Origin: Candidatus Cloacimonadales bacterium
Lineage (GTDB): Bacteria > Cloacimonadota > Cloacimonadia > Cloacimonadales > TCS61
Direction: 5' to 3'
Assembly (NCBI GenBank): GCA_046482725.1
Contig: JAWOEN010000052.1
Coordinates: 1-40,575 of the forward strand
DNA: 40,575 nucleotides
In this document: positions 9,644-36,987 of the stretch, one piece after another
Position numbering within the stretch: the stretch's first letter is position 1
How the letters are laid out: every line of letters starts with the position of its first letter
Translations under genes and position numbers: made by a program
The notes under the pieces: generated by a model
What the model saw: only the letters and a program-made list of their open reading frames with translations
What the model was told of the DNA's origin: nothing
The model's database searches: none

Positions 9644-10805
9644 TTTTTCCGTTCCTCTCCCTAAAGTATTCTACGATTATACCGCCATTTCCACCAATAT
9701 TTCCTACTCCAAATAATAGAACTTCCTGCGCTGGCAATTTGCTGACTTCGGCGATCAATTCTTCTCCACTCACCCATCCACAATCGTGTACTTCTGCTTT
9801 GGAAATACCGTGTGAGATGGCATAAGAATGCATAGATTGAGTTTGCTGCCCGATCAGGAAAAGCTCATCGTGCTCAAATTCGCAGAGCATGTCGATCAGC
9901 TGCTTGGAACGATAGATTCTATCTTCGCGAGTATTTAGAACCAATGAAATGTTGTCGATATGTGAGTGGATTTTTTTTACATAATTAATTAAAAACTGGG
10001 TTGATTCCGGATCATTTGCCGCAAAAGAGTGAACGAAAAATATTTTCATCCCATTCCGCTTCACTTCAAAGATCTCGGCAGCTCCGATATCGGGTTTGGC
10101 TTTGTACATCTCTTGCAAAGCAACATCCCGCTCTACCTGACAATGTTCACAAACATCCAAACTGACTGCCACATTGTCTTTGTGCTCGATGTGTCGAAAT
10201 CCGCGCATCATCTCATCAGAGATTTTGTTACTATCAGAGTAAATCAATTTCGTACCCATCTTGTGGGCTTGTTTGCTTATCAAGGGAAACATTCTCCACT
10301 CTGCCGTATAAGCGATGCCATTACTGGGCAGTGAATTACACAGCGAGAGAGTACAGTTTCTCAGGCCGGGACCCATCACATCCAGATGATCCAAGCGACT
10401 GTTGGTGACTACTCCGATATCAGAATGCACCATCTCCTGCTCGGTAACCCACTGATATTCGGGAGTTACAGCCATGCATTCCAACACCAAAATATCGATG
10501 TCACGTTTAGCCACAAATTTTATGATCTTCAATTGCTCTTTGATGTTAGCTTCATAATGACGCACAATCGGGGTCTCAGAGCCATCTTCAAAAATTATTG
10601 CCGGGGCTGAACCTGTTGTTTTTGCCATCACTTTTTTGTTGCCGCCGCGTAAACCGGCTGCGATGAGCCTCACCACACTAGATTTTCCTCTAGTTCCATT
10701 TACATGAATGATTAGCGGAATCTTTTTCCGCCAAAATTGGTGATTATGAAATTCGATAATCCATAATACAATTAATAAAACAAAACCAAAAATTAATATA
10801 TACAT
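9636..10805 (-). CDS. pgsB: Poly-gamma-glutamate synthase PgsB/CapB (Mur-ligase-like amide ligase)
   Basis: 389 aa with an N-terminal transmembrane segment. Motifs are HVNGTRGKSS (P-loop), LVLECMAV.PEYQ, VVTN.RLDHLDVMGP, and FAANDPEST near the C-terminal third. All parallel B. subtilis PgsB (INGIRGKST, SECMAVNPDYQ, NVLEDHMDVMGP, FAANDASST) from memory. Confidence 0.9.
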   Translation of the reverse strand: MYILIFGFVLLIVLWIIEFHNHQFWRKKIPLIIHVNGTRGKSSVVRLIAAGLRGGNKKVMAKTTGSAPAIIFEDGSETPIVRHYEANIKEQLKIIKFVAKRDIDILVLECMAVTPEYQWVTEQEMVHSDIGVVTNSRLDHLDVMGPGLRNCTLSLCNSLPSNGIAYTAEWRMFPLISKQAHKMGTKLIYSDSNKISDEMMRGFRHIEHKDNVAVSLDVCEHCQVERDVALQEMYKAKPDIGAAEIFEVKRNGMKIFFVHSFAANDPESTQFLINYVKKIHSHIDNISLVLNTREDRIYRSKQLIDMLCEFEHDELFLIGQQTQSMHSYAISHGISKAEVHDCGWVSGEELIAEVSKLPAQEVLLFGVGNIGGNGGIIVEYFRERNGKNV

Positions 10806-10843
10806 TTTACCTCATAATAGATTGAGCTTTGCTAAATTTTATT

Positions 10844-10891
10844 AAAAAAAACCAAGCTTCTTCAGGAGCACCCAAAGCGGATACTCCTGAA
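10844..10891 (-). terminator. Rho-independent terminator candidate after the C25 peptidase gene, separating it from pgsB
   Basis: An 8-bp TTCAGGAG / CTCCTGAA stem (10861-10868 / 10884-10891). On the minus strand a T8 run (plus-strand A-run 10844-10851) follows about 9 nt after the stem. Confidence 0.55.
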
Positions 10892-10950
10892 ATAGCTAGC
10901 AGACTTTTTTTTACAAAACTCAAGTTTAACCAATATTTTCGATCATTAAC

Positions 10951-13900: not shown

Positions 13901-14424
13901 AGATTTTCCTTGGCAATAATCAGCATCCGAGTGGGAGCAATCTCGGTCATATAGAGATAAGATTCGGCGAAATTGCCGGTAACTGAACGGTAAACAGGCA
14001 GAAAAGCCGGAGAAACTTTTTGCGGAATCTCTACTCGCTTGGTTGGATTAACCGAGAATTCCAGACTGGTAAGCACAGCTCTACCTTCAGCTCTTTCGGG
14101 CTGCAGATTTAGCTCGACTGTATGAGCATAGAGTTCTCGCATCACAAAGCTGTCAGTAATTTTCACACTTGCTTGGTTGCGTTCTGTTTCATTACCGATA
14201 AAATTATCGTCAGCATCAAAAATAGCATAATTGCTGCTGATGATTTCCACTTCCACTGCGGTAGCGGGTATTGCCAAGACAGTCTCTACGGTAATATCTT
14301 GGGGGGCCAGATCATTATTCTGGTAGCTCACCACAAGATTTCCTCTCTCCTGCTGATAGCTAAAATCAGCCAGCAAACTGCTAGCGAAAATCAACAGCAA
14401 AATAAATATCATATGTTTTTTCAT
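10951..14424 (-). CDS. Peptidase C25 (gingipain/PorU-like) family protein with CARDB-like Ig domains and a T9SS C-terminal domain
   Basis: 1157 aa with a signal peptide. DYLLLVGDV...P, ITYRGWGNANGW and SFVCNTGDF...GDPSL align by eye with the RgpB region NYTGHGSETAW...DVACVNGDF...GDPSL. There are two ~95-aa segments resembling CARDB domains. The C-terminus is LLGNYPNPFNPTTTISF...SGVYFYQL...KCLLLK. Confidence 0.8.
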   Translation of the reverse strand: MKKHMIFILLLIFASSLLADFSYQQERGNLVVSYQNNDLAPQDITVETVLAIPATAVEVEIISSNYAIFDADDNFIGNETERNQASVKITDSFVMRELYAHTVELNLQPERAEGRAVLTSLEFSVNPTKRVEIPQKVSPAFLPVYRSVTGNFAESYLYMTEIAPTRMLIIAKENLFNTMQTFIDWKQASAIETDIFSITEAGGSSENIRAFIADRYNNLETRPDYLLLVGDVNGSFELPSFYISDANNVTDLPFTMIEGDDYFPEILAGRFSIDSEMELMTIINKVIFYEKTPYMEDSSWLESATLVAGNYSDSPPMPTTPVNTSKWLEEKLDYYGYANVDEFYYPPLYPGSTDIINSINSGVNLITYRGWGNANGWHYPEFKRQHIDELNNGYMLPVVTSFVCNTGDFANQAVDPSFGEKFVRAGTPSIPKGAVIFVGPSDLHTNTRYNNSLFSGFYHGFLDEDNFIFSTALLRSKYELYDNFPRERAVGQEEAVEFYFHVYNILGDPSLMMRSRVPNALVAEFVSEINTGTNYLDIVAAEADGALVSAVKDGEIIARGTMENGAITLYFEPQEPGQIEVTLTKPNHIPYIQTVEVSSHSVDLGISSVQSSEVIAGAEVTIDLELTNFGSETASAVAADLISNNEMVTIESGTADFGDIAANASANASFVVTIAPESPNGESLAFSLEISDGSIAKFALLNNSILFEITELEIPEDGVLDPGDDLIVNLTVKNIGSIDVENLTAIPSEMSDAILVSDTVLEFGDLLVGETATAELGISVAADAFVGRLVSINLDFVDAEEQTTSAIYTTQIGTVQSSDPTGPDNYGYYAYDNTDVGYEEAPEYEWHVVDPEDGGNGTIIPLADDQTEVVDLPFTFQYYGEAHDLISVSSNGWLAFDETDVDDFTNWNIPAALGPYAMVAPYWDDLIGIPFDDGSGMHYHIRLGYDYFPEEGKFVIQWNGAVNRHNDSSIEKFEVVLYDPAMHQTATGDGIIQFNYHTVDNPDEDDNYSTVGIENGHQTDGICYSYSDFYAASAVPLSAGLAIKFTTNSPDDYVGTDENEMIQPQLQLLGNYPNPFNPTTTISFSTSQAEQYTELQIYNTKGQKVKTLVAETLPAGTHSVVWAGDDHQGNVVSSGVYFYQLSDGKSNISSGKCLLLK

Positions 14425-14434
14425 CTATCCTCCA

Positions 14435-16765
14435 TTACTTTAGCAAGATCATCTTGCGCGAAGCTTGATAATCTGCAGTTGATAATTTATAAAAATATAC
14501 ACCACTTGCGACACTGCGATTGGCTTGATCTCTGCCGTCCCAGACTACGCTATTGCTAGCAGAAAGCTGAGTCGATTGCAGATCAAAACTTTTTATTTTC
14601 TGACCCCGAACATTATAAATCTCCAACTGCGCCTCAGCGTAATCTTGCTCTGCCAAATTAAAGCGGATCGTAGTTTCAGGATTAAAAGGGTTGGGGAAAT
14701 TTCCCCTCAGCTCTGTCTTGAGCTCGGGGATATTTTCTTCATTGGCATTGGACGCAAGTGAAGAAACTATCTTCAGATTGTCGATCCACCAACCGGGGTC
14801 TCTCTGAGTATCATCACTGACAAAGCGAAAACGCAGATGCAAATATGTATCTACATAATCTGCCAAAGAGAGCACAACATTGTCATTTGTCGGGCTCATC
14901 ACATCTTGCCAACCTTTACTAATGCCGGAATATTCAGCGATGGTCTGCCAGGTAGTGCCATTGGTACTCACTTCCACTTTCCCAAAATCTACGTCATGTT
15001 CGGTTCGATATTTATGATCAAAAGTCAAGACCACATCGTCAGCTACGCCTTGCAAACTTATATAGCCGCTGTACTGTGCAGAATCATCCATATTATTGGG
15101 ATAAAAATCGTGCATGCTGTTTTGGAAGAAATTGCGATGTACTACCAAACTCTGTGTATTCGAAACAGGATCTATCTCGGCAGCCCAGCTATATTCTGTC
15201 TCCCAATCAGGAATGCCAGCATCAAAATTATCTGCAAAAAGCACAACTTCCGGGGCAAGCTCTAGCTCCAGATCTGCATCTTGCAAATGCTCTGCCTGAT
15301 ATTGATAAGGTACAAAACCGTCAATTTTCACAATAAATTGCTGCTCTCCGGCAAAAGTATCCAGACTGAAATCTCCTCCGGAAAAGGGGATAACTTGATG
15401 ATATTCACCTAGGATTTCTACTACACCATCCAGCTCTGTGTTGGTGGAAACGTTTATATTAACCGGCTGCAAAGGCTGCAATTCCACATCTCTAATTGTC
15501 CAGGATGAGTTATTGACGGTAACACTCTGCAGATGATCTTGATAGCCTGCTTTACGCACTCGCAGGGTATATTGTCCCGGATTGAGTTGGCGCCAATATC
15601 TGCCAAAAGTATCGTCAGTCAGGCGCGGCGTGAAAAATGAAGCGTGATTTTCTTCGATAATAACTTCGGCAACGATTGGGGCGCCCGTTTCGGCGTCGGT
15701 AACGTGTCCGGTCAGCATGGCACCACTATCGGCCTGATATCCTAAAATGCGGCTGAATAACCAAAAAGCTCCACTCAGATTTCGTTCCACAGTATCCAGC
15801 ATGATAGCTTCGTTGGGCTGTAAATTCTGGGTACCACATTCGATCAAGAGCTGGGTTGTACCATGTTCTTGGTAAAACCACTCATGAGCAGAGCCTTTTC
15901 TACCGCGTGAGGGTGAAGGCTCGTAAAATCCGCTGCCTGTCTCTTTCTGTATGCGGCTAGCAACCTCTTCTCCAATATATTGATTATGCTCAAAATCGGG
16001 ACTTCGTTTGAGATCGTCCCATTCAAATGAGTAAAAAATTTGCTCTGATAAATTTCCTGTGCGGGAAGAGTGCCAAGCTACGGAATAGATAAAATGCTGC
16101 TCTGCTGCCAGGTTGGTAATAGCTTGGATGCCGCCTTCGGATATCGGGGCCGGACCGCGATAATAATCATACAATTCGTCGCCATCAGGGCAATACAATG
16201 TGTCTCCATGCACCCAATTAAATGAGAAATTTCTATTCATATCCACACCGTCGATATCTCTACCGACTCCCAGCTCTACATCCCACTCACCGTTTTCATT
16301 ATTATCACGCATATTCTTACGCCAGGAGACATGCTCTGTATCCATCACCACACCCAAGCCTTCCGGATTGTAGGTGGGAACTATCCAAATTTCCAGCTCA
16401 GAAATCCAGACATTGTAAGGAGTATAATTTCTGTTTTCCAAGATATCGTAGATCATATTCATGGTGATCTCTACGCCCAAAACTTCTTCAGCGTGAACTT
16501 GACCGATAAAAAGCAAAGCAGGTTCATCTTCATTTTCTTGCACATTATCGGAGATTTTCACACCCCAAATCGGCAACGGATCTTGAAAAGGAGAGCCCAA
16601 AGTTTCGCCGATCTGTTCCACTTTCATGATATCAGAATGCTGCTCTTGCAACTGAAATAATTCCTCTTCTATCTCTTCATTGGTATGATAGGCAGGATCC
16701 AGATAGAGCTGTGCCGAAAGTGCACCAACCAGCATCAACATTAAAAAGATTAGCATTTTTTTCAT
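14435..16765 (-). CDS. M14 family zinc carboxypeptidase with a CarboxypepD_reg-like domain and a T9SS C-terminal domain
   Basis: 776 aa with a signal peptide. M14 motifs present are GQVHAEEVLG (HxxE zinc ligands), NPEG, WRKN, VDMNRNF, VAWHS and LLIECG (catalytic Glu region). LTGHVTDAETGAPIVAEVII resembles the carboxypeptidase regulatory-like domain. The C-terminus is LRGNFPNPFNPETTIRF...SGVYFYKL...KMILLK. Its stop lies only 10 nt from the C25 ATG, which has a GGAGGA ribosome-binding site. Confidence 0.85.
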   Translation of the reverse strand: MKKMLIFLMLMLVGALSAQLYLDPAYHTNEEIEEELFQLQEQHSDIMKVEQIGETLGSPFQDPLPIWGVKISDNVQENEDEPALLFIGQVHAEEVLGVEITMNMIYDILENRNYTPYNVWISELEIWIVPTYNPEGLGVVMDTEHVSWRKNMRDNNENGEWDVELGVGRDIDGVDMNRNFSFNWVHGDTLYCPDGDELYDYYRGPAPISEGGIQAITNLAAEQHFIYSVAWHSSRTGNLSEQIFYSFEWDDLKRSPDFEHNQYIGEEVASRIQKETGSGFYEPSPSRGRKGSAHEWFYQEHGTTQLLIECGTQNLQPNEAIMLDTVERNLSGAFWLFSRILGYQADSGAMLTGHVTDAETGAPIVAEVIIEENHASFFTPRLTDDTFGRYWRQLNPGQYTLRVRKAGYQDHLQSVTVNNSSWTIRDVELQPLQPVNINVSTNTELDGVVEILGEYHQVIPFSGGDFSLDTFAGEQQFIVKIDGFVPYQYQAEHLQDADLELELAPEVVLFADNFDAGIPDWETEYSWAAEIDPVSNTQSLVVHRNFFQNSMHDFYPNNMDDSAQYSGYISLQGVADDVVLTFDHKYRTEHDVDFGKVEVSTNGTTWQTIAEYSGISKGWQDVMSPTNDNVVLSLADYVDTYLHLRFRFVSDDTQRDPGWWIDNLKIVSSLASNANEENIPELKTELRGNFPNPFNPETTIRFNLAEQDYAEAQLEIYNVRGQKIKSFDLQSTQLSASNSVVWDGRDQANRSVASGVYFYKLSTADYQASRKMILLK

Positions 16766-16792
16766 ATTTATCCTTCTTTAATAACAAAGAAA

Positions 16793-16820
16793 TTTTCCCC
16801 GACCCAAGGCCGGGGAAAAA
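16793..16820 (-). terminator. GC-rich hairpin (possible terminator or attenuator) between the repeat-protein gene and the M14 gene
   Basis: TTTTCCCCG acccaaggc CGGGGAAAA. On the minus strand it is followed by a T-rich tract (TTTCTTTGTTATT). Confidence 0.4.
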
Positions 16821-16825
16821 ATTAT

Positions 16826-19800
16826 CTATTTCATCAAAATCATTTTTCTGGTTTCAGTCTGCTGCGGATTAGAGAGCTGGTAAAAATATACGCCTGAGGC
16901 AACATTTTTCTGATTGCTGTCTTTGCCGTTCCAGGTAGCAGTATGCCTGCCAGCCGATAATTCAGCATCAACCAAAGTTTTTACTTTTTGTCCTTTCAGG
17001 TTATAGATGGTCAATTCTGTCGGCTGATTTTCAGTTGCTACAGAAAACTTGATAGTGGTGGTGGGATTGAAAGGATTGGGATAATTCTGCTGCAAAGATT
17101 GCTGCAGATTCAGCTCATTTTCATCACTGTTCAAGACTTCAAAAGCCACTTTCTGAGCGTAAATATTGTAGATATCATTCTTGCCTGAAGAGCGGGCATC
17201 TTCCCAGATAATAAAAGCAGAATCATCTCCGGCATAAGCCGAGATTGGTTTTTTCTGATCTTTGATCGCTGTCGTAAGTGCAAGACCTGCATTATCCCAC
17301 TGTTTCTCACCGGCAGCCGAGACCCATTGTGTGTGGATATCAGATTCGGCTACACCAGCCTCTCCACCACCAAAATAGTGTTCCCAAGATACCAAGAAGC
17401 TTTCGCCGTTGGATACTAAATCAGGAGTTTTTTGGTTTTGCTCTTCGGCAATAATCTCGATTCCGTTTCCTGCCCAATTTGTAGAAGCATCTGAATTGTA
17501 GCTCTGCATATAGACATCATAGATTCCACCTTCCAAGTCATCCCAAGCCAAGAATAAACCATCATTATATACAGGATTGGAAGCAATCTGATCATTTTCG
17601 GATGTTACCAGAGGTGCTCCGTTTTCTTCCCAAAGTATATTGCCATCAGCAGTAACTATCTGTCCGTAGATATCTGCGATTCCATCGTTACGCTTATCTG
17701 ACCAAATCAGCAACAAACCTTCATCGGTCATGATAGCTTGCGCTTTCTCCTGAATACCTGCAGCAGCAACAACTTCTAAGCCATCTTCCGGCCAGCCAGC
17801 TGCCATATTACCAGTTTCATCCAGCTTGGCTACGTGGATATTTATAGTATTCCAATTAACAGAAATTTTCCAGATAATGTAATCGTCTACCACTGTCATC
17901 AGCTCATCTTCACCTGCCAAGTCTGCGATTTCCACTCCTGCCGGATCAAGCTGAGCTTCACCGTTTTCATCAAATATCTGAGAGTAAATACCATAATCAA
18001 AATTGGCTCGGGTATCTTGCCAACTGATAAAATATTGCCCATCAACATAGGCTATCTTAGGATTTTTCTGAGCTACTTCATTGGGACAAACCACAGTTCC
18101 CTGCTCGCCCCACAATCTATTGCCATCAAAATCTAGCAGCTGAGCATAAGTATAATCAACTCCATCGATCCGACCTTCGGTCCAAACTACGGCAATTTTG
18201 TCTTCTCCCGGCACCAAAGTAGCATGCAGCTCTTGCTGATCAGAGCCTGTCATCTCGGTGATGGAAACACCATTTTTTTCCAATTGGAAACTAGCATCAG
18301 GATTAAGAATCTGATAATAGATCTGGCTTGCCAAATGAGAATCACGGCTATCTTCCCAAACTACGGCAGGATTTTCGCCATTTTCTAAAATTGTATAATC
18401 GGAAGCGTTGCCGATCATGCCGCCGAAGACAACTTTTCCATTTTCTGGTAAAATCTCTTCTCCAGCTTCATCCAGAATCTGCACCTGAATCGTTCTGGCT
18501 CCAGCTTCATTATTACCATTACCCCAAATCGTAAAAATTCTATCTCCACTTTTTTTGATCAGCGGAGAAAATTGTTCACTAAACTGCGAGCAAACTTGCA
18601 ATCCATCTGTTTCCAGCTGAATCTCACCAGCAGCATTGACCTGCTGAGCATAGATATCTACATTGGGAAAACCTCCATCTCGAGAATCATCCCAAATAAT
18701 CCAAATTCCGCCTGCATCATCAGAATCCAAGCGCGGATTTAATTGATCATATGCGGCAGTTACCACTGGTAAACCGTCGGCAGCCCATAATTTCTCGCCT
18801 GCCTGATTTATCTTCTGCACGTGAATATTTTTGTAAGTTATCTCTGCTGCGCCATCTTCCCAGGCTACTACAGCCGCATCATCAGAGGTGATCTGAATGC
18901 GAGGATTTCTCTGGATTCCAGCGCCTACTAAAATTTCCAATTCTTCTTCCCACAAAAAGTTGCCATCCAAATCGACTAACTGTCCATAAATATCACCGGA
19001 TGCTTCGTTACGCTTGTCTAGCCAAGCAAAGAAAAATTTATCGTCGGAAGTACGAGTTACTTTGGGACGAGATTGTGCATTGGCAGCGCCCACTAATAAA
19101 TTGCCATTTTCAGCCCAGAGCAAATCTCCATTGGCTGCGATTCTCTGCATATAGATATCAGATCCTCCGGGATTTCTGTCATCAGCCCAGGCTACCACAG
19201 CCCCGCCTTGTCCATCTTCCCAAAAAGTATGCTGACCTTGTGAATTTGATTCGACCACTATCGGGTTGCCATCTGCTTCCCAACCTTCGGCAATTGTGCC
19301 ATCGGCCAAAATATGTGTTCCATAAATATCAGGAGCAGATTGCAAGCGTTGATCGACCCAAATGATCAAAGCTCCGCCAGCTTCATTACTGACTATATTA
19401 AGCGAAATTTGTTCTTCTTCTGCCAGACAAAGTGGTACGCCAGCTTCATCCCAGAGGATATTTCCATCTTCATCCAATTTCTGAGCATAGATGTCGCCTT
19501 CCAGAGGATTATTGCGGTAATCTACCCAAGCCACAACTGTCTGCCCATCTCCGGTTTCGATAATCACCAGATCTTCCTGACGATCAGCTTCACCGTTGAT
19601 CATTACGCCTTCCTTCATGCCGGGATAAGCAGAGTTGCCACTCTCTTCGCCCCACAACATATTGCCGTCGCCATCTACTTTTTGGGCAAAAATGTCACGA
19701 TCACCATTTCTTACATCCGACCATACATAAACCACACTGCCATCGGGGATCGTAGCACTTGCTCTGGTCCATTCCACGTTTACGCTTTGACGCACAGGCA

Positions 19801-19888
19801 TAGATTTGTCCCATTGCAACTGGGCATTCAGCCCTACCACTAATGACAACAGTAAAACTATGATAAATTTTCTCATTTTTCTCTCCAT
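16826..19888 (-). CDS. Large secreted repeat protein (about 15-16 tandem ~57-aa units, probable beta-propeller array) with a T9SS C-terminal domain
   Basis: 1020 aa with a signal peptide (an alternative start MRKF lies 4 codons in). The recurring unit is (V/I)W.D.R....DIY.Q.(V/L)D..GN.LW...G..(V/L). Examples are DIFAQKVDGDGNMLW, DIYAQKLDEDGNILW, DIYMQRIAANGDLLW, DIYGQLVDLDGNFLW and DIYGQIVTADGNILW. The C-terminus is LQQNYPNPFNPTTTIKF...SGVYFYQL...KMILMK. Confidence 0.75.
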   Translation of the reverse strand: MERKMRKFIIVLLLSLVVGLNAQLQWDKSMPVRQSVNVEWTRASATIPDGSVVYVWSDVRNGDRDIFAQKVDGDGNMLWGEESGNSAYPGMKEGVMINGEADRQEDLVIIETGDGQTVVAWVDYRNNPLEGDIYAQKLDEDGNILWDEAGVPLCLAEEEQISLNIVSNEAGGALIIWVDQRLQSAPDIYGTHILADGTIAEGWEADGNPIVVESNSQGQHTFWEDGQGGAVVAWADDRNPGGSDIYMQRIAANGDLLWAENGNLLVGAANAQSRPKVTRTSDDKFFFAWLDKRNEASGDIYGQLVDLDGNFLWEEELEILVGAGIQRNPRIQITSDDAAVVAWEDGAAEITYKNIHVQKINQAGEKLWAADGLPVVTAAYDQLNPRLDSDDAGGIWIIWDDSRDGGFPNVDIYAQQVNAAGEIQLETDGLQVCSQFSEQFSPLIKKSGDRIFTIWGNGNNEAGARTIQVQILDEAGEEILPENGKVVFGGMIGNASDYTILENGENPAVVWEDSRDSHLASQIYYQILNPDASFQLEKNGVSITEMTGSDQQELHATLVPGEDKIAVVWTEGRIDGVDYTYAQLLDFDGNRLWGEQGTVVCPNEVAQKNPKIAYVDGQYFISWQDTRANFDYGIYSQIFDENGEAQLDPAGVEIADLAGEDELMTVVDDYIIWKISVNWNTINIHVAKLDETGNMAAGWPEDGLEVVAAAGIQEKAQAIMTDEGLLLIWSDKRNDGIADIYGQIVTADGNILWEENGAPLVTSENDQIASNPVYNDGLFLAWDDLEGGIYDVYMQSYNSDASTNWAGNGIEIIAEEQNQKTPDLVSNGESFLVSWEHYFGGGEAGVAESDIHTQWVSAAGEKQWDNAGLALTTAIKDQKKPISAYAGDDSAFIIWEDARSSGKNDIYNIYAQKVAFEVLNSDENELNLQQSLQQNYPNPFNPTTTIKFSVATENQPTELTIYNLKGQKVKTLVDAELSAGRHTATWNGKDSNQKNVASGVYFYQLSNPQQTETRKMILMK

Positions 19889-20078
19889 TTTTCTAGATTA
19901 TTATTAAAAATTATTTTAAGTCTCAACTTGTGTTTTTATCAAACAGATTGTTAAAAAAAAACACAGTTTTGCAATATTTCGGTTTAACATTTTCCAAACC
20001 TTGCTAAGCGCACGGCTCGGAAAAATTCTTTGCTCTTTATTAGCTACTATTTCCCATTTATTATCAGATTGAAACTTG

Positions 20079-21113
20079 TCAATCTTGAATCGAGATTTGT
20101 GATACTCCGATTCTGGAACCGGCAAAAACTTTGCCATCCTGGATATTTACGTTGTAGGTATAGCCAATCTCGCTATCGTCTATCCGCCCTATTCGGCGAG
20201 GGTTTACAGGATCTGAGATATCAAAAACATAGAGGCCGCCACCACCGGAAGCCAGTGCCAGATAATCACCTTCCACAGCTACATCTTGAGCATAGCCGGA
20301 AGTAGCCACTTCAGCAACTATCTGAGGATTATTGAGGTCACTGATATCAGCAATTACCAGCCCGTTTTGTCTGTCAGCTACGTAAACAAAATCGTCAACC
20401 ACCTTTACAGACAGTGGAATGCCCTTGGTATCAAAGCGACTGACAAAGGTTGGAGCAAATTCTCCACGCTGGTAGATGCTTATACCCAATTGCTCGGAAC
20501 AGATAAAAAAATGATTGTTGGCAAAATCAAATTTCCCGATCTCAAAATCAAATTCATAATCGGCAACTCCACCAGCCCATAGCCAGCTATTAAATTCTTC
20601 ATCAAAGGCTAAACTTCCACCTAACATAATTTTGTTAGTTCCGTTATCCAAGCTCCAAATTACCTCGATCCCATCATCGTGTCTGTAGGTTTTCATCTCA
20701 AACAAATCGGTTGTTTGCCCACTGATAGTGGCTACATTTTGCACATCTTCAGGATCTGAGATATCAAAAATGCGAATGCCGTTTAAGCCCCCATAAGGCA
20801 CATAAACCACCAAGAGCGAATCTTCTTCAACTGGCTGGATTAGTCTCATATTTTCATAATTTGACTCATAAAAATCGACTAATAAAGCATTTGTCTGATG
20901 GTTGAAAATAGAGAATCCGGCTTGATCTTCAGCAGCGTAAATTCTATCTGCAGTAACAGCTGCATCCAGAACATATCCGGTGGTTGGGTAAAAATGAACC
21001 ACATTTAAGCTTTCTACAGTTTCTGTAGCGAGTGGGTCATTGGGTTGAGCACAGCCCACAAAAGCCACTACAATTGATATTAACAAAATTTGAATAATTC
21101 TTTCTTTTTTCAT
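20079..21113 (-). CDS. LVIVD-repeat beta-propeller lipoprotein
   Basis: The track ORF runs to 21194. ATG at 21113 gives MKKERIIQILLISIVVAFVGC, a lipoprotein signal peptide. Repeats include GIRIFDISDPEDVQNV, GLVIADISDLNNPQIV and GLYVFDISDPVNPRRIG, matching the LVIVD repeat pattern. Confidence 0.7.
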   Translation of the reverse strand: MKKERIIQILLISIVVAFVGCAQPNDPLATETVESLNVVHFYPTTGYVLDAAVTADRIYAAEDQAGFSIFNHQTNALLVDFYESNYENMRLIQPVEEDSLLVVYVPYGGLNGIRIFDISDPEDVQNVATISGQTTDLFEMKTYRHDDGIEVIWSLDNGTNKIMLGGSLAFDEEFNSWLWAGGVADYEFDFEIGKFDFANNHFFICSEQLGISIYQRGEFAPTFVSRFDTKGIPLSVKVVDDFVYVADRQNGLVIADISDLNNPQIVAEVATSGYAQDVAVEGDYLALASGGGGLYVFDISDPVNPRRIGRIDDSEIGYTYNVNIQDGKVFAGSRIGVSQISIQD

Positions 21114-23770: not shown

Positions 23771-23849
23771 CGGGATGTAGCCTAGTCCGGCTCAGGGCGC
23801 CGCATTTGGGATGCGGAGATCGGAGGTTCGAATCCTCTCATCCCGACCA
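23771..23849 (+). tRNA. tRNA-Pro (anticodon TGG), CCA encoded
   Basis: Hand-folded cloverleaf. Acceptor is CGGGATG/CATCCCG. The anticodon arm is CCGCA-TTTGGGA-TGCGG with G37. The T arm is GGAGG-TTCGAAT-CCTCT. The D loop is 11 nt. Confidence 0.85.
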
Positions 23850-23881
23850 GTTTTTCATAGACGTGACTTCAGATAGAATCT

Positions 23882-23957
23882 GGGCGTGTAGCTCAGTTGG
23901 GAGAGCGCCTGCCTTACAAGCAGGTGGTCGGGGGTTCAAGTCCCTCCGCGCCCACCA
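23882..23957 (+). tRNA. tRNA-Val (anticodon TAC), copy 1, CCA encoded
   Basis: GGGCGTGTAGCTCAGTTGGGAGAGCGCCTGCCTTACAAGCAGGTGGTCGGGGGTTCAAGTCCCTCCGCGCCCACCA. It forms a canonical cloverleaf with anticodon loop CTTACAA. Confidence 0.9.
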
Positions 23958-23989
23958 TTTTCTATCAAAAAACCTGAAATAAATTTTCA

Positions 23990-24065
23990 GGGCGTGTAGC
24001 TCAGTTGGGAGAGCGCCTGCCTTACAAGCAGGTGGTCGGGGGTTCAAGTCCCTCCGCGCCCACCA
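23990..24065 (+). tRNA. tRNA-Val (anticodon TAC), copy 2, identical to copy 1
   Basis: The 76-nt sequence is identical to 23882..23957, separated by a 32-nt AT-rich spacer. Confidence 0.9.
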
Positions 24066-28471: not shown

Positions 28472-28557
28472 GGAGGATTAGTTCTAATTGGTAAGACAGC
28501 GGTCTTGAAAACCGCCGCCCTTTGGGCTTGGGAGTTCGAGTCCCCCATCCTCCGCCA
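28472..28557 (+). tRNA. tRNA-Ser (anticodon TGA), CCA encoded
   Basis: Acceptor is GGAGGAT/ATCCTCC. The anticodon arm is GCGGT-CTTGAAA-ACCGC. It has a long variable arm (GCCCTTTGGGC) and a 3-bp D stem, as in class II Ser tRNAs. The T stem has one A-C mismatch in my hand fold. Confidence 0.8.
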
Positions 28558-28574
28558 TTATTTTTATCATCTCT

Positions 28575-28667
<93 letters not shown>

Positions 28668-28683
28668 GTTTTACCCTATTCGT

Positions 28684-28758
28684 AGGGGCGTCGTCAAGTG
28701 GTTAAGACACATGGTTTTGGTCCATGCATCGTGGGTTCGAATCCTGCCGCCCCTACCA
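28684..28758 (+). tRNA. tRNA-Gln (anticodon TTG), CCA encoded
   Basis: Acceptor is AGGGGCG/CGCCCCT. The anticodon arm is CATGG-TTTTGGT-CCATG. The T loop is TTCGAAT. It is followed by a T-run. Confidence 0.8.
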
Positions 28759-31474: not shown

Positions 31475-33534
31475 AACGTAAAAGATTGAAACTGCAGCAA
31501 CAAATATTTCTCTCTTTCTTTTTGGTTGTTGTCTCCTTGGTGATCATCCAGTTTTTCTTCACTTGGTATCTCTTTAGTTTTGGCATCAAGCAAACCGAAA
31601 ACGATGAGATCAACCAAAGCATCAGTAAAGTGGACGCTCAGCTTGAGCTTTGGCAAAATGCGCTCAGCCAAGAGCTGAATGATCTGATCTCAAAGCCAGA
31701 ATTTATCGCAGCTTTCCAAACTGCTGACCAAAACAAAATATCTCAAATTCTAGCCACAAAACCAGCTTATAAAAATTTGCTGCTTTTTGATAAGCAAGAA
31801 CAGCTCATTTATGGTTCAAACTGGAATCTTTCCCAAAAATATATCTCAGAAATTCAGCAACTGAATTCTCGCAACATTGATACCAAATTTTACGCTGAAC
31901 ACTCTTACAAGCTTTATCTGATGCTGGGAAATACTCTGCAAGATGCAGACTCGCTCTTTATCGGTTCTGCCCTCTATGTCACTCAGCTACGACAAGAGAT
32001 CTTTACGCCAGCAATCAATCTACCCAGCCAGATAGTCCCGGTAGATTCTCAACATTATAGTAGCGGAAAGCTTGAGCTTCCTGAAGCATTATTTCGAACT
32101 GAATTGCAAGAAATGTTGCAGCGCAACAGCTCGCGCAATATTTTGCGCCAGAACCGAGATAGTGCTTTCGGCTTTTATCTGCTAAATGATGTTTTCAATC
32201 AAGCTCAAGCTGTGGTGCTGCTAGGCTATCCGCGCGAGATGAATTCGTTCTTCAGCAGTGGAGTCATCTTTTTCGCGCTAATTATTTTGGCTTTTTCGCT
32301 GGTAATTGCCAGTTTTATGGGAATCTGGTTTAGCAAATCTATCATGCAGCCGGTCAAAGATATCTCTGCTAAGATGACAGAGATTTCGCAAAATCCTTCT
32401 CATATCAAACCTTTCCGAGATAAATTTTCCGGCGTTTTGGGCGATATCACCGATATCTACAGCGATATGAGCCGCTCCTTGATCGAAAGTCGCAAAATAT
32501 TATTGCAGTACAAAGCAATCACCGATCATATCAATGTTGGCATCTTTTTTATGAATGCCGAGCATGAAATAGTTATCTGCAATCCGGCCTTCCAAAAAAT
32601 CTTTGCCCTAGAAACTACAGAGAAGATCAATCTTAGTGAGCTCACCCAGATCTCTTCCCAAAAACTGCTGGAAATTGGAAATTCCCCTACCCACAATTAC
32701 TATTTCTCTCTGCAACGAAATGGACAAAAAAAATATTTGATTTTGGATCTGAATATCTCGCGGGAGGCAGATGAGCTGAAATATTTCGGCAGCATTACAG
32801 ATGAAACTACGATGGTAAAATCTCGCAAAGCGAAACAATCTTTGGAGCTGGAACTGATCAAATCAAACCGCTTGGCAAAGATCGGAAATCTGTTGGTAGG
32901 AGTGGTACACAACCTGAATTCTCCGCTCAATTCTATCATAGGTTATTCGCAATTTCTCAAAAAAGATTTTCCCGATAATACCGACATCGACCGTTTGCAT
33001 CAATCGGCCCAGCAAGTATCTACCATGGTGAAAGGATTGCTCAATAAGAACCGTAATGAAAACCGTTCAATGCCGCAAAATATTGATGTGAATGAGGTTA
33101 TCAATGCTGAGCTGGAGATGTGCGAGCACAATCTTTTTTTCAAACATTATGTCATAGTAAAAAAGCAGTTGAGTGAAAATCTCAAATTTACCAACGCAGT
33201 TTATAGTGACATCAGTCTTTGCCTGGCCAACCTGCTGAATAATGCGATCGATGCAATGCATGATAGTGATCTGAAAGAGCTGAATATAAAAAGCTTTATG
33301 CGGCAAAATTTGGTAGTGATAGAGATCTGTGATACAGGCTGTGGCATTGCCGAAGATAAATTGGAGGAGATTTTCGATATCAGTTACTCTTCCAAACTGG
33401 ATGACAAAAGTGGAGGCTACGGTTTGGGCTTGGCTCTCACCAAAGCGATCGTGGAAAAATGCCAAGGTAAGATCGAAGTAGAATCGAAATTGGATGTGGG
33501 AAGTTGCTTTCGCGTTAGCTTTCCCAAAATGTGA
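31471..33534 (+). CDS. Membrane sensor histidine kinase (periplasmic or extracytoplasmic domain between two transmembrane segments, PAS-like region, HisKA/HATPase_c)
   Basis: 687 aa. The start overlaps the upstream stop (ATGA at 31471-31474). Transmembrane segments lie near residues 12-35 and ~265-290. The H-box is GVVHNLNSPLNSIIGY. The N box is NLLNNAIDAM and the G box is GYGLGLA. Confidence 0.8.
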   Translation: MKRKRLKLQQQIFLSFFLVVVSLVIIQFFFTWYLFSFGIKQTENDEINQSISKVDAQLELWQNALSQELNDLISKPEFIAAFQTADQNKISQILATKPAYKNLLLFDKQEQLIYGSNWNLSQKYISEIQQLNSRNIDTKFYAEHSYKLYLMLGNTLQDADSLFIGSALYVTQLRQEIFTPAINLPSQIVPVDSQHYSSGKLELPEALFRTELQEMLQRNSSRNILRQNRDSAFGFYLLNDVFNQAQAVVLLGYPREMNSFFSSGVIFFALIILAFSLVIASFMGIWFSKSIMQPVKDISAKMTEISQNPSHIKPFRDKFSGVLGDITDIYSDMSRSLIESRKILLQYKAITDHINVGIFFMNAEHEIVICNPAFQKIFALETTEKINLSELTQISSQKLLEIGNSPTHNYYFSLQRNGQKKYLILDLNISREADELKYFGSITDETTMVKSRKAKQSLELELIKSNRLAKIGNLLVGVVHNLNSPLNSIIGYSQFLKKDFPDNTDIDRLHQSAQQVSTMVKGLLNKNRNENRSMPQNIDVNEVINAELEMCEHNLFFKHYVIVKKQLSENLKFTNAVYSDISLCLANLLNNAIDAMHDSDLKELNIKSFMRQNLVVIEICDTGCGIAEDKLEEIFDISYSSKLDDKSGGYGLGLALTKAIVEKCQGKIEVESKLDVGSCFRVSFPKM

Positions 33535-33554: not shown

Positions 33555-34946
33555 ATGTATAATAGCGATAATGTAAGAATTCTGATAGTAGATGATGAAC
33601 AATTTACTCGTGAAATTTTTTGTCGGCAATTAGCTTCTCAGTATCAGGTGGACGAAGCGGAATCTGCGACTGCTGCTTTGCAGAAAATCGAACAGATCGG
33701 CTATCAGATTGTGATGACAGATTTGGTGATGCCGGGCGAAGATGGTATGGAATTGTTAAAAAAGATCAAAGCCAAGTGGCCGGAAATATCGGTGGTGATG
33801 ATCAGTGGTAAAGCTTCGATCGAAACTGCTGTGCAAGCGATGAAATTGGGCGCAGAAGAGCTGATCGAAAAACCATTGGAAGATCTGGAGCTGCTCAATA
33901 TCATCACCCAAAAAATCCTGAAAAGCAAATGGCAAGCTGATGAAATTTTGCGCTTGCGCCAAAAATTGGAAACCAATTTTGATCGCTCCCACATTATTGG
34001 CAACAATATCAAAGTTCAGAAAATCATGGAAAAGATCAAAATGGTGGCACCCCTCGACGCTACAGTGCTCTTAAATGGAGAAACCGGCGTGGGTAAAGAA
34101 GTGTTTGCCGAATTGATCTACAAAAATAGCGACCGCAAAGATAAAAAATTTGTGGCCTTCAACTGTGGCAGTTTGGCAGAAAACCTTTTGGAAAGCGCAC
34201 TTTTTGGTCATGCCAAAGGTTCCTTTACCAGCGCTGTAAAAGATAAAATCGGCTATTTCGAAGAAGCCAACGGCGGTACTCTTTTTTTGGATGAGATCAC
34301 CGATACTTCACCGGCTTTTCAGGTAAAACTTTTGCGCGCTCTGGAAAAAAACGTGATTCGCCGCGTGGGCGGAGATAAAGATATCAAAATCGATACCAGG
34401 ATTATTGCTGCCACCAACAAAGATCCGTTGCGCGAAGTGGAAGCGGGAAATTTTCGCGAAGATCTCTTTTATCGGCTCAATGTGATCAATATCACGATTC
34501 CGCCTCTGCGCGAACGAGTCGATGATATCAAATTGCTCTCACAAGAATTTTGTAAAAATTTCGCGGAAAAATATCATAAGCCGGAACTCTCCATTTCAGA
34601 TTCAGCTATGTCTATCCTGGCTTCTTCGCCTTGGAAAGGCAATGTACGCGAACTAAAAAATGCGATCGAGCACGCAGTGGCGATGGCGCAACATGATAAA
34701 ATCCTAGCCGAAGATCTACCCGATGCTCTGCGCCAAAATACAGGCCAAACAACCAATTCTCTGGGACAACTGCTGCATCTACCCTACGCCCAAGCCAAAA
34801 ATATCTTTGAAGAAAAATATCTGCAAAATCTGCTAGAATTGACCAAAGGCGAAATCACCAAAGCAGCCGAAATCTCCGGCATCAAACGCCAAAACCTCTA
34901 CAATAAAATGGGTAAATATCTCCTTGATCCGGAAAATTTCCGCTGA
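33555..34946 (+). CDS. Sigma-54-dependent Fis-family response regulator (NtrC-like enhancer-binding protein)
   Basis: 463 aa. The receiver has ILIVDDE...VMTDLVMP...KP. The AAA+ core has Walker A GETGVGKE, GSFTSA at the GAFTGA position (34218-34235), Walker B GGTLFLDEI, RVGG and FREDLFYRLNV. The C-terminal Fis-type helix-turn-helix is ITKAAEISGIKRQNLYNKM. Confidence 0.85.
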   Translation: MYNSDNVRILIVDDEQFTREIFCRQLASQYQVDEAESATAALQKIEQIGYQIVMTDLVMPGEDGMELLKKIKAKWPEISVVMISGKASIETAVQAMKLGAEELIEKPLEDLELLNIITQKILKSKWQADEILRLRQKLETNFDRSHIIGNNIKVQKIMEKIKMVAPLDATVLLNGETGVGKEVFAELIYKNSDRKDKKFVAFNCGSLAENLLESALFGHAKGSFTSAVKDKIGYFEEANGGTLFLDEITDTSPAFQVKLLRALEKNVIRRVGGDKDIKIDTRIIAATNKDPLREVEAGNFREDLFYRLNVINITIPPLRERVDDIKLLSQEFCKNFAEKYHKPELSISDSAMSILASSPWKGNVRELKNAIEHAVAMAQHDKILAEDLPDALRQNTGQTTNSLGQLLHLPYAQAKNIFEEKYLQNLLELTKGEITKAAEISGIKRQNLYNKMGKYLLDPENFR

Positions 34947-34995
34947 TTGAGCCAATTGGACATTTCAGGTAACTGTTGCTTTTCTCCACAGATTT

Positions 34996-35039
34996 TGTCA
35001 TCTTTTTATTACAGTTAAGCTGATCTGACATTTTTTTTT
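34996..35039 (+). terminator. Weak rho-independent terminator candidate for the sensory operon
   Basis: An imperfect stem, TGTCA (34996-35000) with TGACA (35026-35030) and a large loop, followed by a T9 run (35031-35039). Confidence 0.35.
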
Positions 35040-35228
35040 GACAACTGCCAGCTAGAATTTCTTCTTCTAGAAAAAAAATCTCATTTTTTTTTGCGCAATA
35101 TAAAAATCTGCTTCTGACTTTCCCGCTCACTTCCCAAAGATTTGTCATTACGAGCTCTCTTCTTGCCAGTCTGATACGTAGTAATCTCTCATTCACCGTA
35201 CTTGTCAGGTCGGCATCTCAAGATAGAG

Positions 35229-35289
35229 GTGAACCGTAAATTCTGCCCAGCCAGAATTAACTCGTTCACGCCAATTTCCAAAGGAAATT
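35229..35289. other. Two adjacent strong hairpins in the convergent-gene gap
   Basis: Hairpin 1: GTGAAC (35229-34) / GTTCAC (35264-69) encloses AATTCTG (35239-45) / CAGAATT (35252-58). Hairpin 2: AATTTCC aaa GGAAATT (35273-35289). The strand of any transcript is unknown. Confidence 0.5.
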
Positions 35290-35293
35290 GCAT

Positions 35294-35362
35294 ATCTGGA
35301 AGGGTTAGAAAAATAAGGGTTTTCTGAGTCTGTCGTATTCCGTATTCCTCTTTCTGTATTCT
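35294..35362. repeat. Direct repeat copy A (~70 nt; contains 2 tandem GTATTCC heptads)
   Basis: Sequence: ATCTGGAAGGG ttagaaaaataagggttttctgagtctgtc GTATTCCGTATTCCTCTTTCTG tATTCT. It aligns at roughly 75-80% identity (by eye) with 35724..35796. Confidence 0.75.
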
Positions 35363-35370
35363 GCTCGTTT

Positions 35371-35700
35371 ATGTCGCTACTACGTAGCTTTTAATTTCCG
35401 AGCTTGGGATACCAGCAGCTGACGCTGCTGGCTACAGAAATGTCGCTGCTAACGCAGCTAGTTCATCATTTTTCCCGCCTGAGAACGGCCTACCATTCCA
35501 CGGCGGGCAAGCTTTGTCTATGCCCACAAAAAACGAAGTTTACCCGCCAGGGCGGGCAAAAAGAAAAGGCACCCTGCAGATTAGACTTTTTATTTGTTAG
35601 CTGCAAAATATCTGGTGATGCCAAACTCGTAACCGTGCCTGCGGCAGCTTACTCAGACAGTGGCATCGCCGGGTGTCGCAAACTCCACCCCGATATTTTT
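35371..35700. ncRNA. Candidate structured non-coding RNA or small element: a GC-rich island of stem-loops between the two direct repeats (family unknown, strand unknown)
   Basis: Hand counts per 60-nt line give about 53-57% GC against a window background near 40%. Perfect stems seen:
- GCTAC/GTAGC (35376-88)
- CCAGCAGC/GCTGCTGG (35412-31)
- GCTGC/GCAGC (35445-58)
- CCCGCC/GGCGGG (35474-79 with 35502-07)
- GGGCA/TGCCC (35505-25)
- CCCGC/GCGGG (35543-56)
- GATGCCA/TGGCATC (35617-23 with 35661-67)
- GGGTG/CACCC (35671-90)
The flanking genes are convergent, so this is not a 5' leader. Confidence 0.3.
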
Positions 35701-35723
35701 ATCAGAACAAATGAAAAAAAGTC

Positions 35724-35796
35724 ATCTGGAAGGGACGGATAAAAAAAGGTCTTCTAAATCTGTATTCCGTATTCCGTATTCCTCTTTCTGAATTCT
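35724..35796. repeat. Direct repeat copy B (~73 nt; contains 3 tandem GTATTCC heptads)
   Basis: Sequence: ATCTGGAAGGG acggataaaaaaaggtcttctaaatct GTATTCCGTATTCCGTATTCCTCTTTCTG aATTCT. It has the same orientation as copy A, 430 nt downstream. Confidence 0.75.
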
Positions 35797-35825
35797 TCCC
35801 AGCTCAAGATCACCTCGCTCTAATT

Positions 35826-35866
35826 TAAACAAAAAGAGAGCTTCTCATTTATCTGAAAAGCTCTCT
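35826..35866 (-). terminator. Rho-independent terminator of the ECF sigma / anti-sigma / PDZ operon
   Basis: A 9-bp AGAGAGCTT (35835-43) / AAGCTCTCT (35858-66) stem. On the minus strand it is followed by TTTTTGTTT. Confidence 0.7.
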
Positions 35867-35922
35867 TGGGGAGTGTTCATTAATCTTAGCGGAGCGGGAA
35901 AACTCCGCAACTAAGGAGGATA

Positions 35923-36987
35923 TTAACGTTCACTATTATTTTCCAAGGGGGAAATATCTTCATCTTTACTACTCGCTTTTATCTCGATCTGATAACTTTT
36001 GGCACCTTGCAACTCTTGCTCGATCAATTTCTGCAATTTCACTCTCGTTATATCTTCTATCTTTTCGGGCAGATCCAAGATTTTGCCGTTAATCATAACC
36101 TCCAGCTCAGCCAAGTTTTCAAAATCGATACTGTCCAATTGCAAATCCAGTCTGTTTAATTGCAAAAATTCTTCAAATCCGGAGAAATGTTTGATCAGCT
36201 CTTCTAGGTCTGGTAATTCGATCTCCTCGCCATTGATAATGAAATCATATTGCCCGGGTTGCAAACTATCTTCGTCGCTATAACGATAGAGAAAGACATT
36301 GTTGGGTTGCTTCAAAAAATCGATGCCACTTCTCAAAAAATTCTGCTGGGGATGCAAACCCAATTGCAGCTCTGTTTTCTTTTCTTTATTCTCGGCAAAA
36401 TAGAGTAGCTCGATCTCTTGATCCACCTGATAATTTTTGATCAGAGCCAAGAGCTGCTCCATCGTGACCAACTTATGACCATCCAGTTTCATTAGGATAT
36501 CACCAGCGCGCAAACCTGCTTGATAAGCGGGTGATCCCTTGATCACGTTATTTAGGTACAAGCCATAGTTTTGCTCATAACCCAGCCTGTTTTTTTGTAG
36601 ATCAGAAATAGCAATTGGGAAAACTCCCAGATAGGGACGACCAGATTGGCGCCTATCAGCTGTCGATAATTTCAGGTTACGCTTTTTTCCAGCTCTTTGG
36701 TAGCGCAATTTTAGCCGCTCTCCCACTTCATAGAGCGAGAGCATCTTAAAATATTGATCCGTAGTATAAAGCTTTTCTCCATCCAATTGCAAAATGATAT
36801 CACCAACATCCAAAGCAGACTCAGCTGCGGGAGATTGGGGTTGGATTTGATAAATCTCCAAACCATAATCCAACTCTTGTTGCTGGGCGGGGCTAAGTGG
36901 GCGAGGAATAATTCCCAGCCAACTTTCTGCACTCAGCGCTAGCGCCAAGCTCAGGATAATCGATAAAAAAAGATATTTTTTTGCCAT
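35923..36987 (-). CDS. Secreted tandem-PDZ protein without a protease domain
   Basis: 354 aa with signal peptide MAKKYLFLSIILSLALALSA. There are two PDZ-like units (GLEIYQIQPQSPAAESALDVGDIILQLDG; GLYLNNVIKGSPAYQAGLRAGDILMKLDG) followed by an acidic ~130-aa tail. I found no Ser-protease (GNSGG) or metalloprotease (HExxH) motif. Confidence 0.7.
   Translation of the reverse strand: MAKKYLFLSIILSLALALSAESWLGIIPRPLSPAQQQELDYGLEIYQIQPQSPAAESALDVGDIILQLDGEKLYTTDQYFKMLSLYEVGERLKLRYQRAGKKRNLKLSTADRRQSGRPYLGVFPIAISDLQKNRLGYEQNYGLYLNNVIKGSPAYQAGLRAGDILMKLDGHKLVTMEQLLALIKNYQVDQEIELLYFAENKEKKTELQLGLHPQQNFLRSGIDFLKQPNNVFLYRYSDEDSLQPGQYDFIINGEEIELPDLEELIKHFSGFEEFLQLNRLDLQLDSIDFENLAELEVMINGKILDLPEKIEDITRVKLQKLIEQELQGAKSYQIEIKASSKDEDISPLENNSER

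Follow-up and report, generated by a model that had tools for sequence, protein, structure and literature searches.

The DNA analysed here (hereafter the window) is a 40,575-bp contig from the metagenome-assembled genome (MAG) of a member of the Cloacimonadales (Candidatus Cloacimonadales bacterium), a name under which the proteins of both genes next to the gap described below are on record with 100% identity. We focus on a gene-free gap of 976 nucleotides (nt), positions 34947-35922, located between two convergent genes. To its left lies the gene for an NtrC-type sigma-54 activator, the last in an operon of hybrid kinase, kinase and activator. To its right lies a gene for a secreted double-PDZ protein, the last of an operon that also encodes an anti-sigma-like protein and an extracytoplasmic function (ECF) sigma factor. 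According to a greedy map of open reading frames (ORFs), the gap is the largest on the contig and the only one above 300 nt that lacks tRNA genes. Two other gaps exceed this size (766 and 661 nt), both with tRNA clusters, and all remaining ones measure at most 276 nt. These values agree with a preliminary description of the locus, which had placed the gap between the 3' ends of the two genes (34946 and 35923) and had given 6-280 nt for most other spacers.

The gap consists of three parts: an enhancer-like module (34947 to about 35090), apparently lineage-specific DNA (about 35090 to 35796) and the PDZ-gene 3' region together with its terminator (35797-35922). It represents a break in conserved gene order. 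The middle part does not code for protein and is strongly structured; it is missing in the nearest relative on the PDZ side but has a conserved counterpart in one other assembly. It is a real, unclassified non-coding element, and not the regulator-linked small RNA (sRNA) that had been proposed earlier. Identified features are listed in Table 1.

Table 1. Features of the gap and of the genes on both sides of it, in window coordinates.
Feature	Position	Strand	Remarks
NtrC-type sigma-54 activator gene	33555-34946	+	REC, AAA+ sigma-54 interaction domain, Fis-type HTH (Pfam)
Enhancer-like module, putatively orphaned	34960-35090, core 34996-35043	+	TGTCATCTTTTTATTACA ... TGACA-N8-TGACA
Adjacent hairpin pair	35229-35270 and 35272-35290		CAATTTCC AAA GGAAATTG; immediately before repeat A
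Direct repeat, copy A	35294-35362 (69 nt)	+	starts ATCTGGAAGGG, 2 GTATTCC heptads, ends TCTTTCTGTATTCT
Hairpin-rich island between repeats	35363-35723 (361 nt)		50% GC
Paralogous hairpins	35376-35388 and 35445-35458		GCTAC-TAC-GTAGC and GCTGC-TAAC-GCAGC; differ by one compensated pair
Hairpin	35411-35430		8 bp
CCCGCC/GGCGGG hairpins	35473-35510 and 35543-35558		
39-nt segment	35476-35514		most of long-loop CCCGCC...GGCGGG hairpin; absent from sole known homologue
Best-conserved island core	35530-35736		61/69 residues identical to P0255 (translated comparison)
Long hairpin	35614-35670		10 bp with one U.G on +
Short hairpin	35671-35691		
Direct repeat, copy B	35724-35796 (73 nt)	+	3 GTATTCC heptads
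Intrinsic terminator of PDZ / anti-sigma-like / ECF-sigma operon	35834-35867	-	14-bp stem, then TTTTGTTT; conserved in relative L001
Secreted double-PDZ protein gene	35923-36987	-	Pfam

The island between the repeats differs from the rest of the contig in both composition and folding. Positions 35371-35700 contain 50.3% GC compared with 41.5% for the contig, which places them in the top 1.6% of 330-nt windows. The GC enrichment described earlier is thus real, although the 53-57% then reported is too high, as only 100-nt peaks reach 54%. Compared with shuffled controls, the island folds with z-scores of -4.76 (plus strand) and -4.45 (minus strand). When the contig was scanned in 200-nt windows, those of the island ranked 3rd, 9th and 10th of 808, level with the tRNA clusters, and a few coding windows folded more strongly. 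Coding windows that match or exceed the island are 10701-10900 (minus strand), 32001-32200 (plus) and 14601-14800 (plus), with z-scores of -6.3, -6.3 and -5.2.

Two strong back-to-back hairpins had been recognised before the first repeat at 35229-35289. Folding of 35229-35290 gave -21.5 kcal/mol, with z-scores of -5.1 on the plus and -4.3 on the minus strand, in accord with that description. Also recovered were the CCCGCC and GGCGGG boxes and, in two copies, the ATGTCGCT motif (repeat families D8 and D12); the island contains the internal duplicate CCAC/GGGCGGGCAA, a member of family D8. Since the 39-nt segment of Table 1 is absent from the only known homologue, it is probably dispensable or a local duplication. 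Resemblances to the 3' end of 16S rRNA (TCGTAACCGTG..CCTGCGG and GATCACCTCGCTCTAA) were seen by eye only, without statistical support, and were not used. The Rfam search suggested with the preliminary description assigned the gap to no known family at gathering thresholds; with E <= 10 it returned, on both strands, only chance matches of 20 bits or less.

The island is flanked by two imperfect direct repeats, whose coordinates and heptad counts agree with those given before. Copies A and B are 84% identical overall and are spaced by 420-430 nt. They agree at 97% over 29 nt, which include 22 identical nt, GTATTCCGTATTCCTCTTTCTG, and at 78% over another 40 nt. The heptad core can be written in degenerate form as (NNATTCC)2-3 TCTTTCTGWATT. 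Mismatches between the copies involve all four bases, and the repeats are unstructured on their own (folding z-scores of 0 to +1). Neither the repeats nor the GTATTCC heptads occur again anywhere in the window, and across the window plus 541 kb of other loci the only further copy is a 26-mer from Moranbacteria (see below). The best inverted pair of the gap is internal (29 nt at 72% identity); terminal inverted repeats or short target duplications were not found in the gap. A sequence resembling an anti-Shine-Dalgarno, UUCCUCUUUCU, was noticed in the repeats by eye; it has no statistical support and was not used.

The gap contains two ORFs of note, 104 amino acids (aa) on the minus and 112 aa on the plus strand. 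Both had been judged junk-like and devoid of a ribosome-binding site, and several tests point the same way. Neither has a match in Pfam, and neither is among the proteins on record for the source MAG. Shine-Dalgarno sequences are present in 21 of 27 real contig genes and at neither possible start of the 112-aa ORF. Codon scores are -0.07 for this ORF, -0.12 for its ATG-start version and 0.02 for the other gap ORF, compared with 0.32 +/- 0.10 for real genes (5th percentile 0.14). AlphaFold2 models the island ORF with a mean pLDDT of 41.8. Codon usage, ribosome-binding site, frame, family and fold alike speak against a protein-coding gene.

An exhaustive phmmer search with the 112-aa translation against 1.84 billion representative proteins nevertheless yielded one real match, P0255. 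This is an unnamed orphan ORF of 118 aa on a 3,837-bp metagenome contig of the Joint Genome Institute (JGI), with 72 of 99 residues identical to the island ORF. The alignment needs a 39-nt in-frame deletion over most of the long-loop CCCGCC...GGCGGG hairpin, and also a shift of frame within the run of A near 35740. Past this frameshift, P0255 stays aligned with the window across repeat B and its heptads, as far as 35806 or beyond. Homologous DNA is thus present in another assembly, and the frame is not kept over its whole length. The best-conserved core holds a CCCGCC/GGCGGG hairpin, an A/U-rich linker, the long and the short hairpin and a T-run. In translation it is 88% identical to P0255, compared with 81-90% (protein) and 76-81% (DNA) for the closest recovered homologues of the flanking genes. 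A search of this type covers predicted ORFs and detects only loci in which this frame is open. Two other matches to the island ORF, P0256 and P0257, were discarded; these are long tandem-repeat "proteins" whose scores are an artefact of summing over 20-29 repeat stretches, a single P0256 unit scoring only 24 bits.

On the right side, the only close relative of the PDZ gene (L001/L002, 81% identity) is homologous to the window from this gene through the terminator. Homology ends at window position 35793-35804, that is, at the outer edge of repeat B. Past this edge, L001 continues with A-rich sequence that is unrelated, and its next gene is a different one. The distal part of the L001 gap has no similarity to the middle part of the gap studied here, and L001 is not a clean empty site; Rfam search of the L001 gap gave nothing. 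Since homology stops at the edge of repeat B on this side and at about 35090 on the other, the DNA in between is likely to be lineage-specific.

On the left side, activator orthologues are common in Cloacimonadota, and the upstream gene order (Polysacc_deac_2, BacA, HolA, Era, hybrid kinase, kinase, activator) is conserved, matching that of relatives L029 and L031. A genome-collection scan with the activator gave one close relative only, identical to L006. Directly after the activator, both the window and the 90%-identical L003 retain a module TGTCAT..ATTAC..TGACA-N8-TGACA. Alignment shows its conservation in L003, L004, L006, L029 and L031; the pattern in relatives is TGTCAT..TTTT.ATTAC, about 15 nt, and then TTGACAT..ATGACA. 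Local alignment scores of the window module are 43-47 versus a shuffle maximum of 39-44. Homology to L003 runs to the end of that contig (window position 35040), and homology to the relatives is lost after about 35090.

In L004, L006, L029 and L031, the module is followed on the same strand by a textbook sigma-54 promoter, a pilin-like gene and genes for T2SSF and T2SSE. The promoter has the form TGGCAC-N5-TTGC, e.g. TTGGCACACCGTTTGCA, and scores 10-11/12. The pilin-like gene has a strong ribosome-binding site and starts with MGTQQILLIVLSVIIVG (also given as MGTQQILLIVLS); the N-terminus of its product does not look like the classical G/FTLIE prepilin leader. These units are located at 7472-7885 (L004), 2152-2995 (L006), 15985-16670 (L029) and 20025-20700 (L031). 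The pilin-like gene encodes about 140 aa, and T2SSF, T2SSE and small genes with hydrophobic N-termini follow it. The window contains neither the sigma-54 promoter nor the pilin-like/T2SSF/T2SSE operon, be it in the gap or elsewhere, and tblastn detected no remnants of the pilin cluster or of glycosyltransferases in the gap or in the whole window.

Since the module is kept while promoter and pilin operon are absent, the first 100-140 nt of the gap appear to be an orphaned (relic) enhancer region, and the module a putative enhancer to which the activator would bind. The gap had been said to be neither promoter nor leader for either flanking gene; it is indeed no leader for them, but its first 100-140 nt or so are the conserved upstream region of a gene absent here. 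In L029 and L031, a minus-strand glycosyltransferase block is inserted between the activator and the module/promoter/pilin unit, which marks the spot directly behind the activator as a recurrent site of rearrangement. Contigs of L003, L004 and L005 stop 35-490 nt after the activator, that of L003 exactly in the T9 run of the module. These stops suggest strain variability or assembly difficulty at that spot.

The organization in relatives recalls PilS/PilR-type sigma-54-dependent control of pilins, known from Pseudomonas and Myxococcus. As in those systems, genes for a kinase and an NtrC-type activator lie in L004, L006, L029 and L031 beside an activator site, a -24/-12 promoter, a pilin-like gene and T2SSF/T2SSE. 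The window is different in that it keeps the kinases, the activator and the module, whereas promoter and pilin operon are absent. We infer that the two-kinase/activator operon would control a sigma-54-dependent pilin-like/T2SSF/T2SSE operon in other Cloacimonadota, the window having kept only the module.

The proposed scan for sigma-54 sites was carried out and revealed no sigma-54 promoter in the gap. The sole plus-strand GG-N10-GC site scores 7/12 compared with 10-11/12 for the real promoters of four relatives. The best sigma-54-like site of the gap as a whole, TGGCAAGAAGAGAGCT (35153-35168, minus strand, 9/12), is oriented back toward the module and the activator's 3' end. A candidate minus-strand promoter at 35722-35696 was dropped, as its -10 element would be lost with the substitutions deduced from P0255. 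As for the strand of a putative island RNA, the T35616.G35668 pair in the long hairpin is a G.U pair tolerated on the plus strand only. Two stem changes deduced from P0255 amino acids, C35543->T and A35665->G, would give G.U on the plus strand and an A.C mismatch on the minus strand. The plus strand thereby seems weakly favoured.

Among 241 million metagenome records, the 22 identical nt of the repeats had a single match, in Candidatus Moranbacteria GW2011_GWC2_37_8 (Patescibacteria). The match extends to 26 identical nt of copy B (35769-35794), GTATTCCGTATTCCTCTTTCTGAATT, for which chance is unlikely by rough estimate. This 26-mer is found at L034 7389-7414 and also in L033 and L035-L037, and is identical in four independent assemblies. 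It is located directly behind a phosphomannomutase terminator, in a 449-nt gap between convergent genes, and only one clear core copy is present at the locus. The GC-rich DNA that follows is unrelated to the window island (no similarity above shuffles) and not significantly structured, and Rfam search of the Moranbacteria gap gave nothing. Strains differ in this gap, L036 having a 105-nt deletion relative to L034, L035 and L037 (alignment A2, columns 283-387). At the equivalent place in L038 (3914-3950), right after a bidirectional terminator, different heptads occur, TAATTCC TACTTCC TAAGTCC TACAACC, which read UAG-N4-UAG-N4-UAG-N4-UAG on the opposite strand. In L042 (3853-4030), the gap contains inverted repeats of about 20 nt (GCAATACATGGTT...) around a GC-rich core of about 130 nt, an arrangement that looks like a miniature inverted-repeat transposable element (MITE).

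The segment was compared with known types of elements. With MITEs and att-flanked cis-mobilisable elements it shares a size of about 500 bp, absence of protein, bounding repeats, structure, location in a gap between convergent genes and foreign GC content, and also a relative whose homology stops at the repeat edge. It differs in its direct repeats of about 70 nt, in being single-copy in 40 kb and in having no recombinase nearby. A MITE is not consistent with bounding repeats that are direct, terminal inverted repeats with target duplication being absent from the gap. An att-flanked element would fit the direct repeats themselves, in which a 29-nt core at 97% identity with 22 identical nt is embedded in repeats of 69 and 73 nt; no recombinase domain is encoded among the 27 window ORFs of at least 110 aa, and L001, though without the island, does not represent a clean empty site. 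Like repetitive extragenic palindromes (REPs) and the bacterial interspersed mosaic elements (BIMEs) built from them, the island is a cluster of short GC-rich palindromes downstream of convergent genes. Unlike them, no palindrome recurs in the 40-kb window, and a shared REP consensus was not seen. Two direct repeats of about 70 nt some 430 nt apart around a promoterless short segment resemble integron attC sites. In contrast to attC, the repeats do not fold into a bulged hairpin, there is no integrase, and RYYYAAC/GTTRRRY cores were not found by eye. On these comparisons, MITE, REP and attC classes were rejected.

Two further candidates were discarded. A clustered regularly interspaced short palindromic repeat (CRISPR) array would here consist of two 70-nt repeats and a 361-nt spacer, and the sole CRISPR-type Rfam match has 18 bits (E = 8.8). 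A diversity-generating retroelement is at odds with A/B mismatches that involve all four bases, and the window encodes no reverse transcriptase. BLAST against phages and plasmids and scans of viral contigs gave no match to the island.

Our preferred reading, held tentatively and at less than even confidence, is that the island is a conserved structured non-coding element, acting most likely as RNA. Such an RNA could arise through transcription that continues past the activator operon, for which no convincing terminator is seen before 35376, or could start at a promoter that escaped recognition. The direct repeats may be duplicated junctions left when the segment recombined into a heptad-bearing site. 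An unannotated structured RNA had already been suggested in the preliminary description, and the region is indeed non-coding, structured, outside Rfam and conserved in at least one other assembly; its status as RNA is put forward here as conjecture. Several observations weigh against it. A sigma-70-type promoter was recognised on neither strand of the gap, and terminator-like sites are weak and found on both (plus 35376-35388, minus 35560-35539). The plus-strand preference concerns three positions (about p = 0.125). Nearly all island stems are perfect palindromes, so that folding discriminates neither between RNA and DNA nor between the two strands. In L001, the nearest available PDZ-side relative, no island follows the PDZ gene. 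The comparison with P0255 was made at the amino-acid level, and the P0255 frame, open over the core with the indel in frame, is mildly compatible with a small protein.

The strongest competitor, which we nonetheless consider rather unlikely, is that the segment is a small integrated module without mobility genes, its GC-rich cargo having recombined at the heptad core CGTATTCCGTATTCCTCTTTCTG. In that case the 70-nt repeats would correspond to attL and attR, and any RNA structure would be a by-product or play a part in the biology of the element itself. A near-identical 29-nt core with less similar arms, a cargo of GC content foreign to the contig, the end of the relative's homology exactly at the outer edge of repeat B and the contigs of three relatives that end 35-490 nt after the activator all agree with such an origin. 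So does the 26-nt core, which recurs exactly once among the 241 million metagenome records, again behind a terminator and before unrelated GC-rich DNA, in a gap that varies between strains and houses another small element in a relative. On the other hand, the window encodes no integrase, transposase or recombinase and holds no further copy, phage, plasmid and viral collections are without a match, and neither a clean empty site nor terminal inverted repeats or short target duplications were found. The Moranbacteria locus has one clear core copy only, and the sequence right of repeat B is apparently also present at the P0255 locus, which suggests vertical inheritance. A small repeat-bounded element had been the second option of the preliminary description; it gains from the homology limit at repeat B, from the recurrence of the heptad core in an unrelated phylum and from the lack of a recombinase in the window, and is carried here as a rival only. 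Its boldest extension, in which the 26-nt core is a landing or recombination site of undescribed tiny non-coding modules that lack mobility genes, place GC-rich structured-RNA cargo right behind terminators where convergent genes meet, move between phyla as distant as Cloacimonadota and Patescibacteria and in one case displaced the sigma-54/pilin promoter here, we regard as improbable.

Function may also be lacking altogether. If the rearrangement in which the sigma-54 promoter and the pilin operon were lost had left filler or decayed DNA behind, with repeats arisen by local duplication and microsatellite slippage, this DNA would sit exactly at a break in conserved gene order, belong to no known family, have no promoter, show heptad numbers of two versus three and tolerate the loss of 39 nt in a homologue, as is observed. 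Such a neutral relic is unlikely in our judgement: the island folds much more strongly than shuffled controls, a compensated pair distinguishes the duplicated hairpins, the translated core shares 88% identity with P0255 against 81-90% (protein) and 76-81% (DNA) for the closest recovered homologues of the flanking genes, and no remnant of a known gene was detected. That the island is a gene for a small basic, Cys-rich protein of about 100 aa (ATG 35440 to 35742) is very improbable. P0255 and the window both keep this frame open, with the indel in frame and 72 of 99 residues identical, but only predicted ORFs could be searched, which biases the finding to open frames. Moreover, the frame shifts against P0255 at about 35740, the codon score is more than 4 standard deviations below real genes, no Shine-Dalgarno sequence precedes the ORF, the pLDDT is 41.8, Pfam and the 1.84 billion representatives contain no family for it, and the annotators of the record did not call it.

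We give hardly any credence to an sRNA transcribed from a sigma-54 promoter under control of the adjacent operon, in the manner of qrr/LuxO or glmY/GlrR. These systems likewise have a structured non-coding region beside a gene for an NtrC-type activator; the module is kept at 34996-35043, and the structured island follows it at a distance of 300-700 nt, on the same strand. The window differs from them by the absence of a -24/-12 promoter, of which the 7/12 plus-strand site falls well short, by the absence of an Rfam match and by the protein-coding target in relatives: in every relative examined, the regulated target is the pilin-like gene and not an RNA. The earlier suggestion that the island might be the output of the kinase-kinase-activator operon is thus not supported, and the island would not be the sigma-54-driven product of the neighbouring two-component system. 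An assembly artefact, a chimera of two unrelated contig ends, is just as implausible. The contig is metagenome-assembled and relatives' contigs break here; however, about 700 nt of unique sequence lie between the homologous flanks, imperfect repeats (84% overall) would not collapse or mis-join, and in the independent assembly with P0255 the island occurs along with repeat B and the sequence past it.

Should the island prove to be a genuine RNA, a structured RNA of about 200-350 nt would be new, confined to one lineage of Cloacimonadota, an uncultured phylum in which, to our knowledge, essentially no regulatory RNAs have been described. Were the segment a mobile module, the 26-nt core shared with Moranbacteria would point to an undescribed route by which small non-coding DNA moves between very distant bacteria. 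As a solid by-product, the analysis ties the two-kinase/NtrC-type operon across Cloacimonadota to the enhancer-like module, the sigma-54 promoter and the pilin-like/T2SSF/T2SSE genes, the target here missing from its usual place and from the rest of the 40-kb window, so that regulator and putative enhancer are left orphaned.

Elsewhere in the window, Rfam 15 at gathering thresholds identified six tRNAs and nothing else. One cluster, Pro(tgg)-Val(tac)-Val(tac), is located at 23771-24065, and both of its Val genes score identically. The other, Ser(tga)-Ser(gct)-Gln(ttg), lies at 28472-28758 between the Era gene and the kinase operon, where L029 and L031 have a gap without a called gene. The region 9194-19888 contains CapC-like and Mur-ligase-like genes (poly-gamma-glutamate type), followed by genes for three large secreted proteins. 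These carry Por_Secre_tail (type IX secretion) sorting domains and include a C25 peptidase and an M14 carboxypeptidase.

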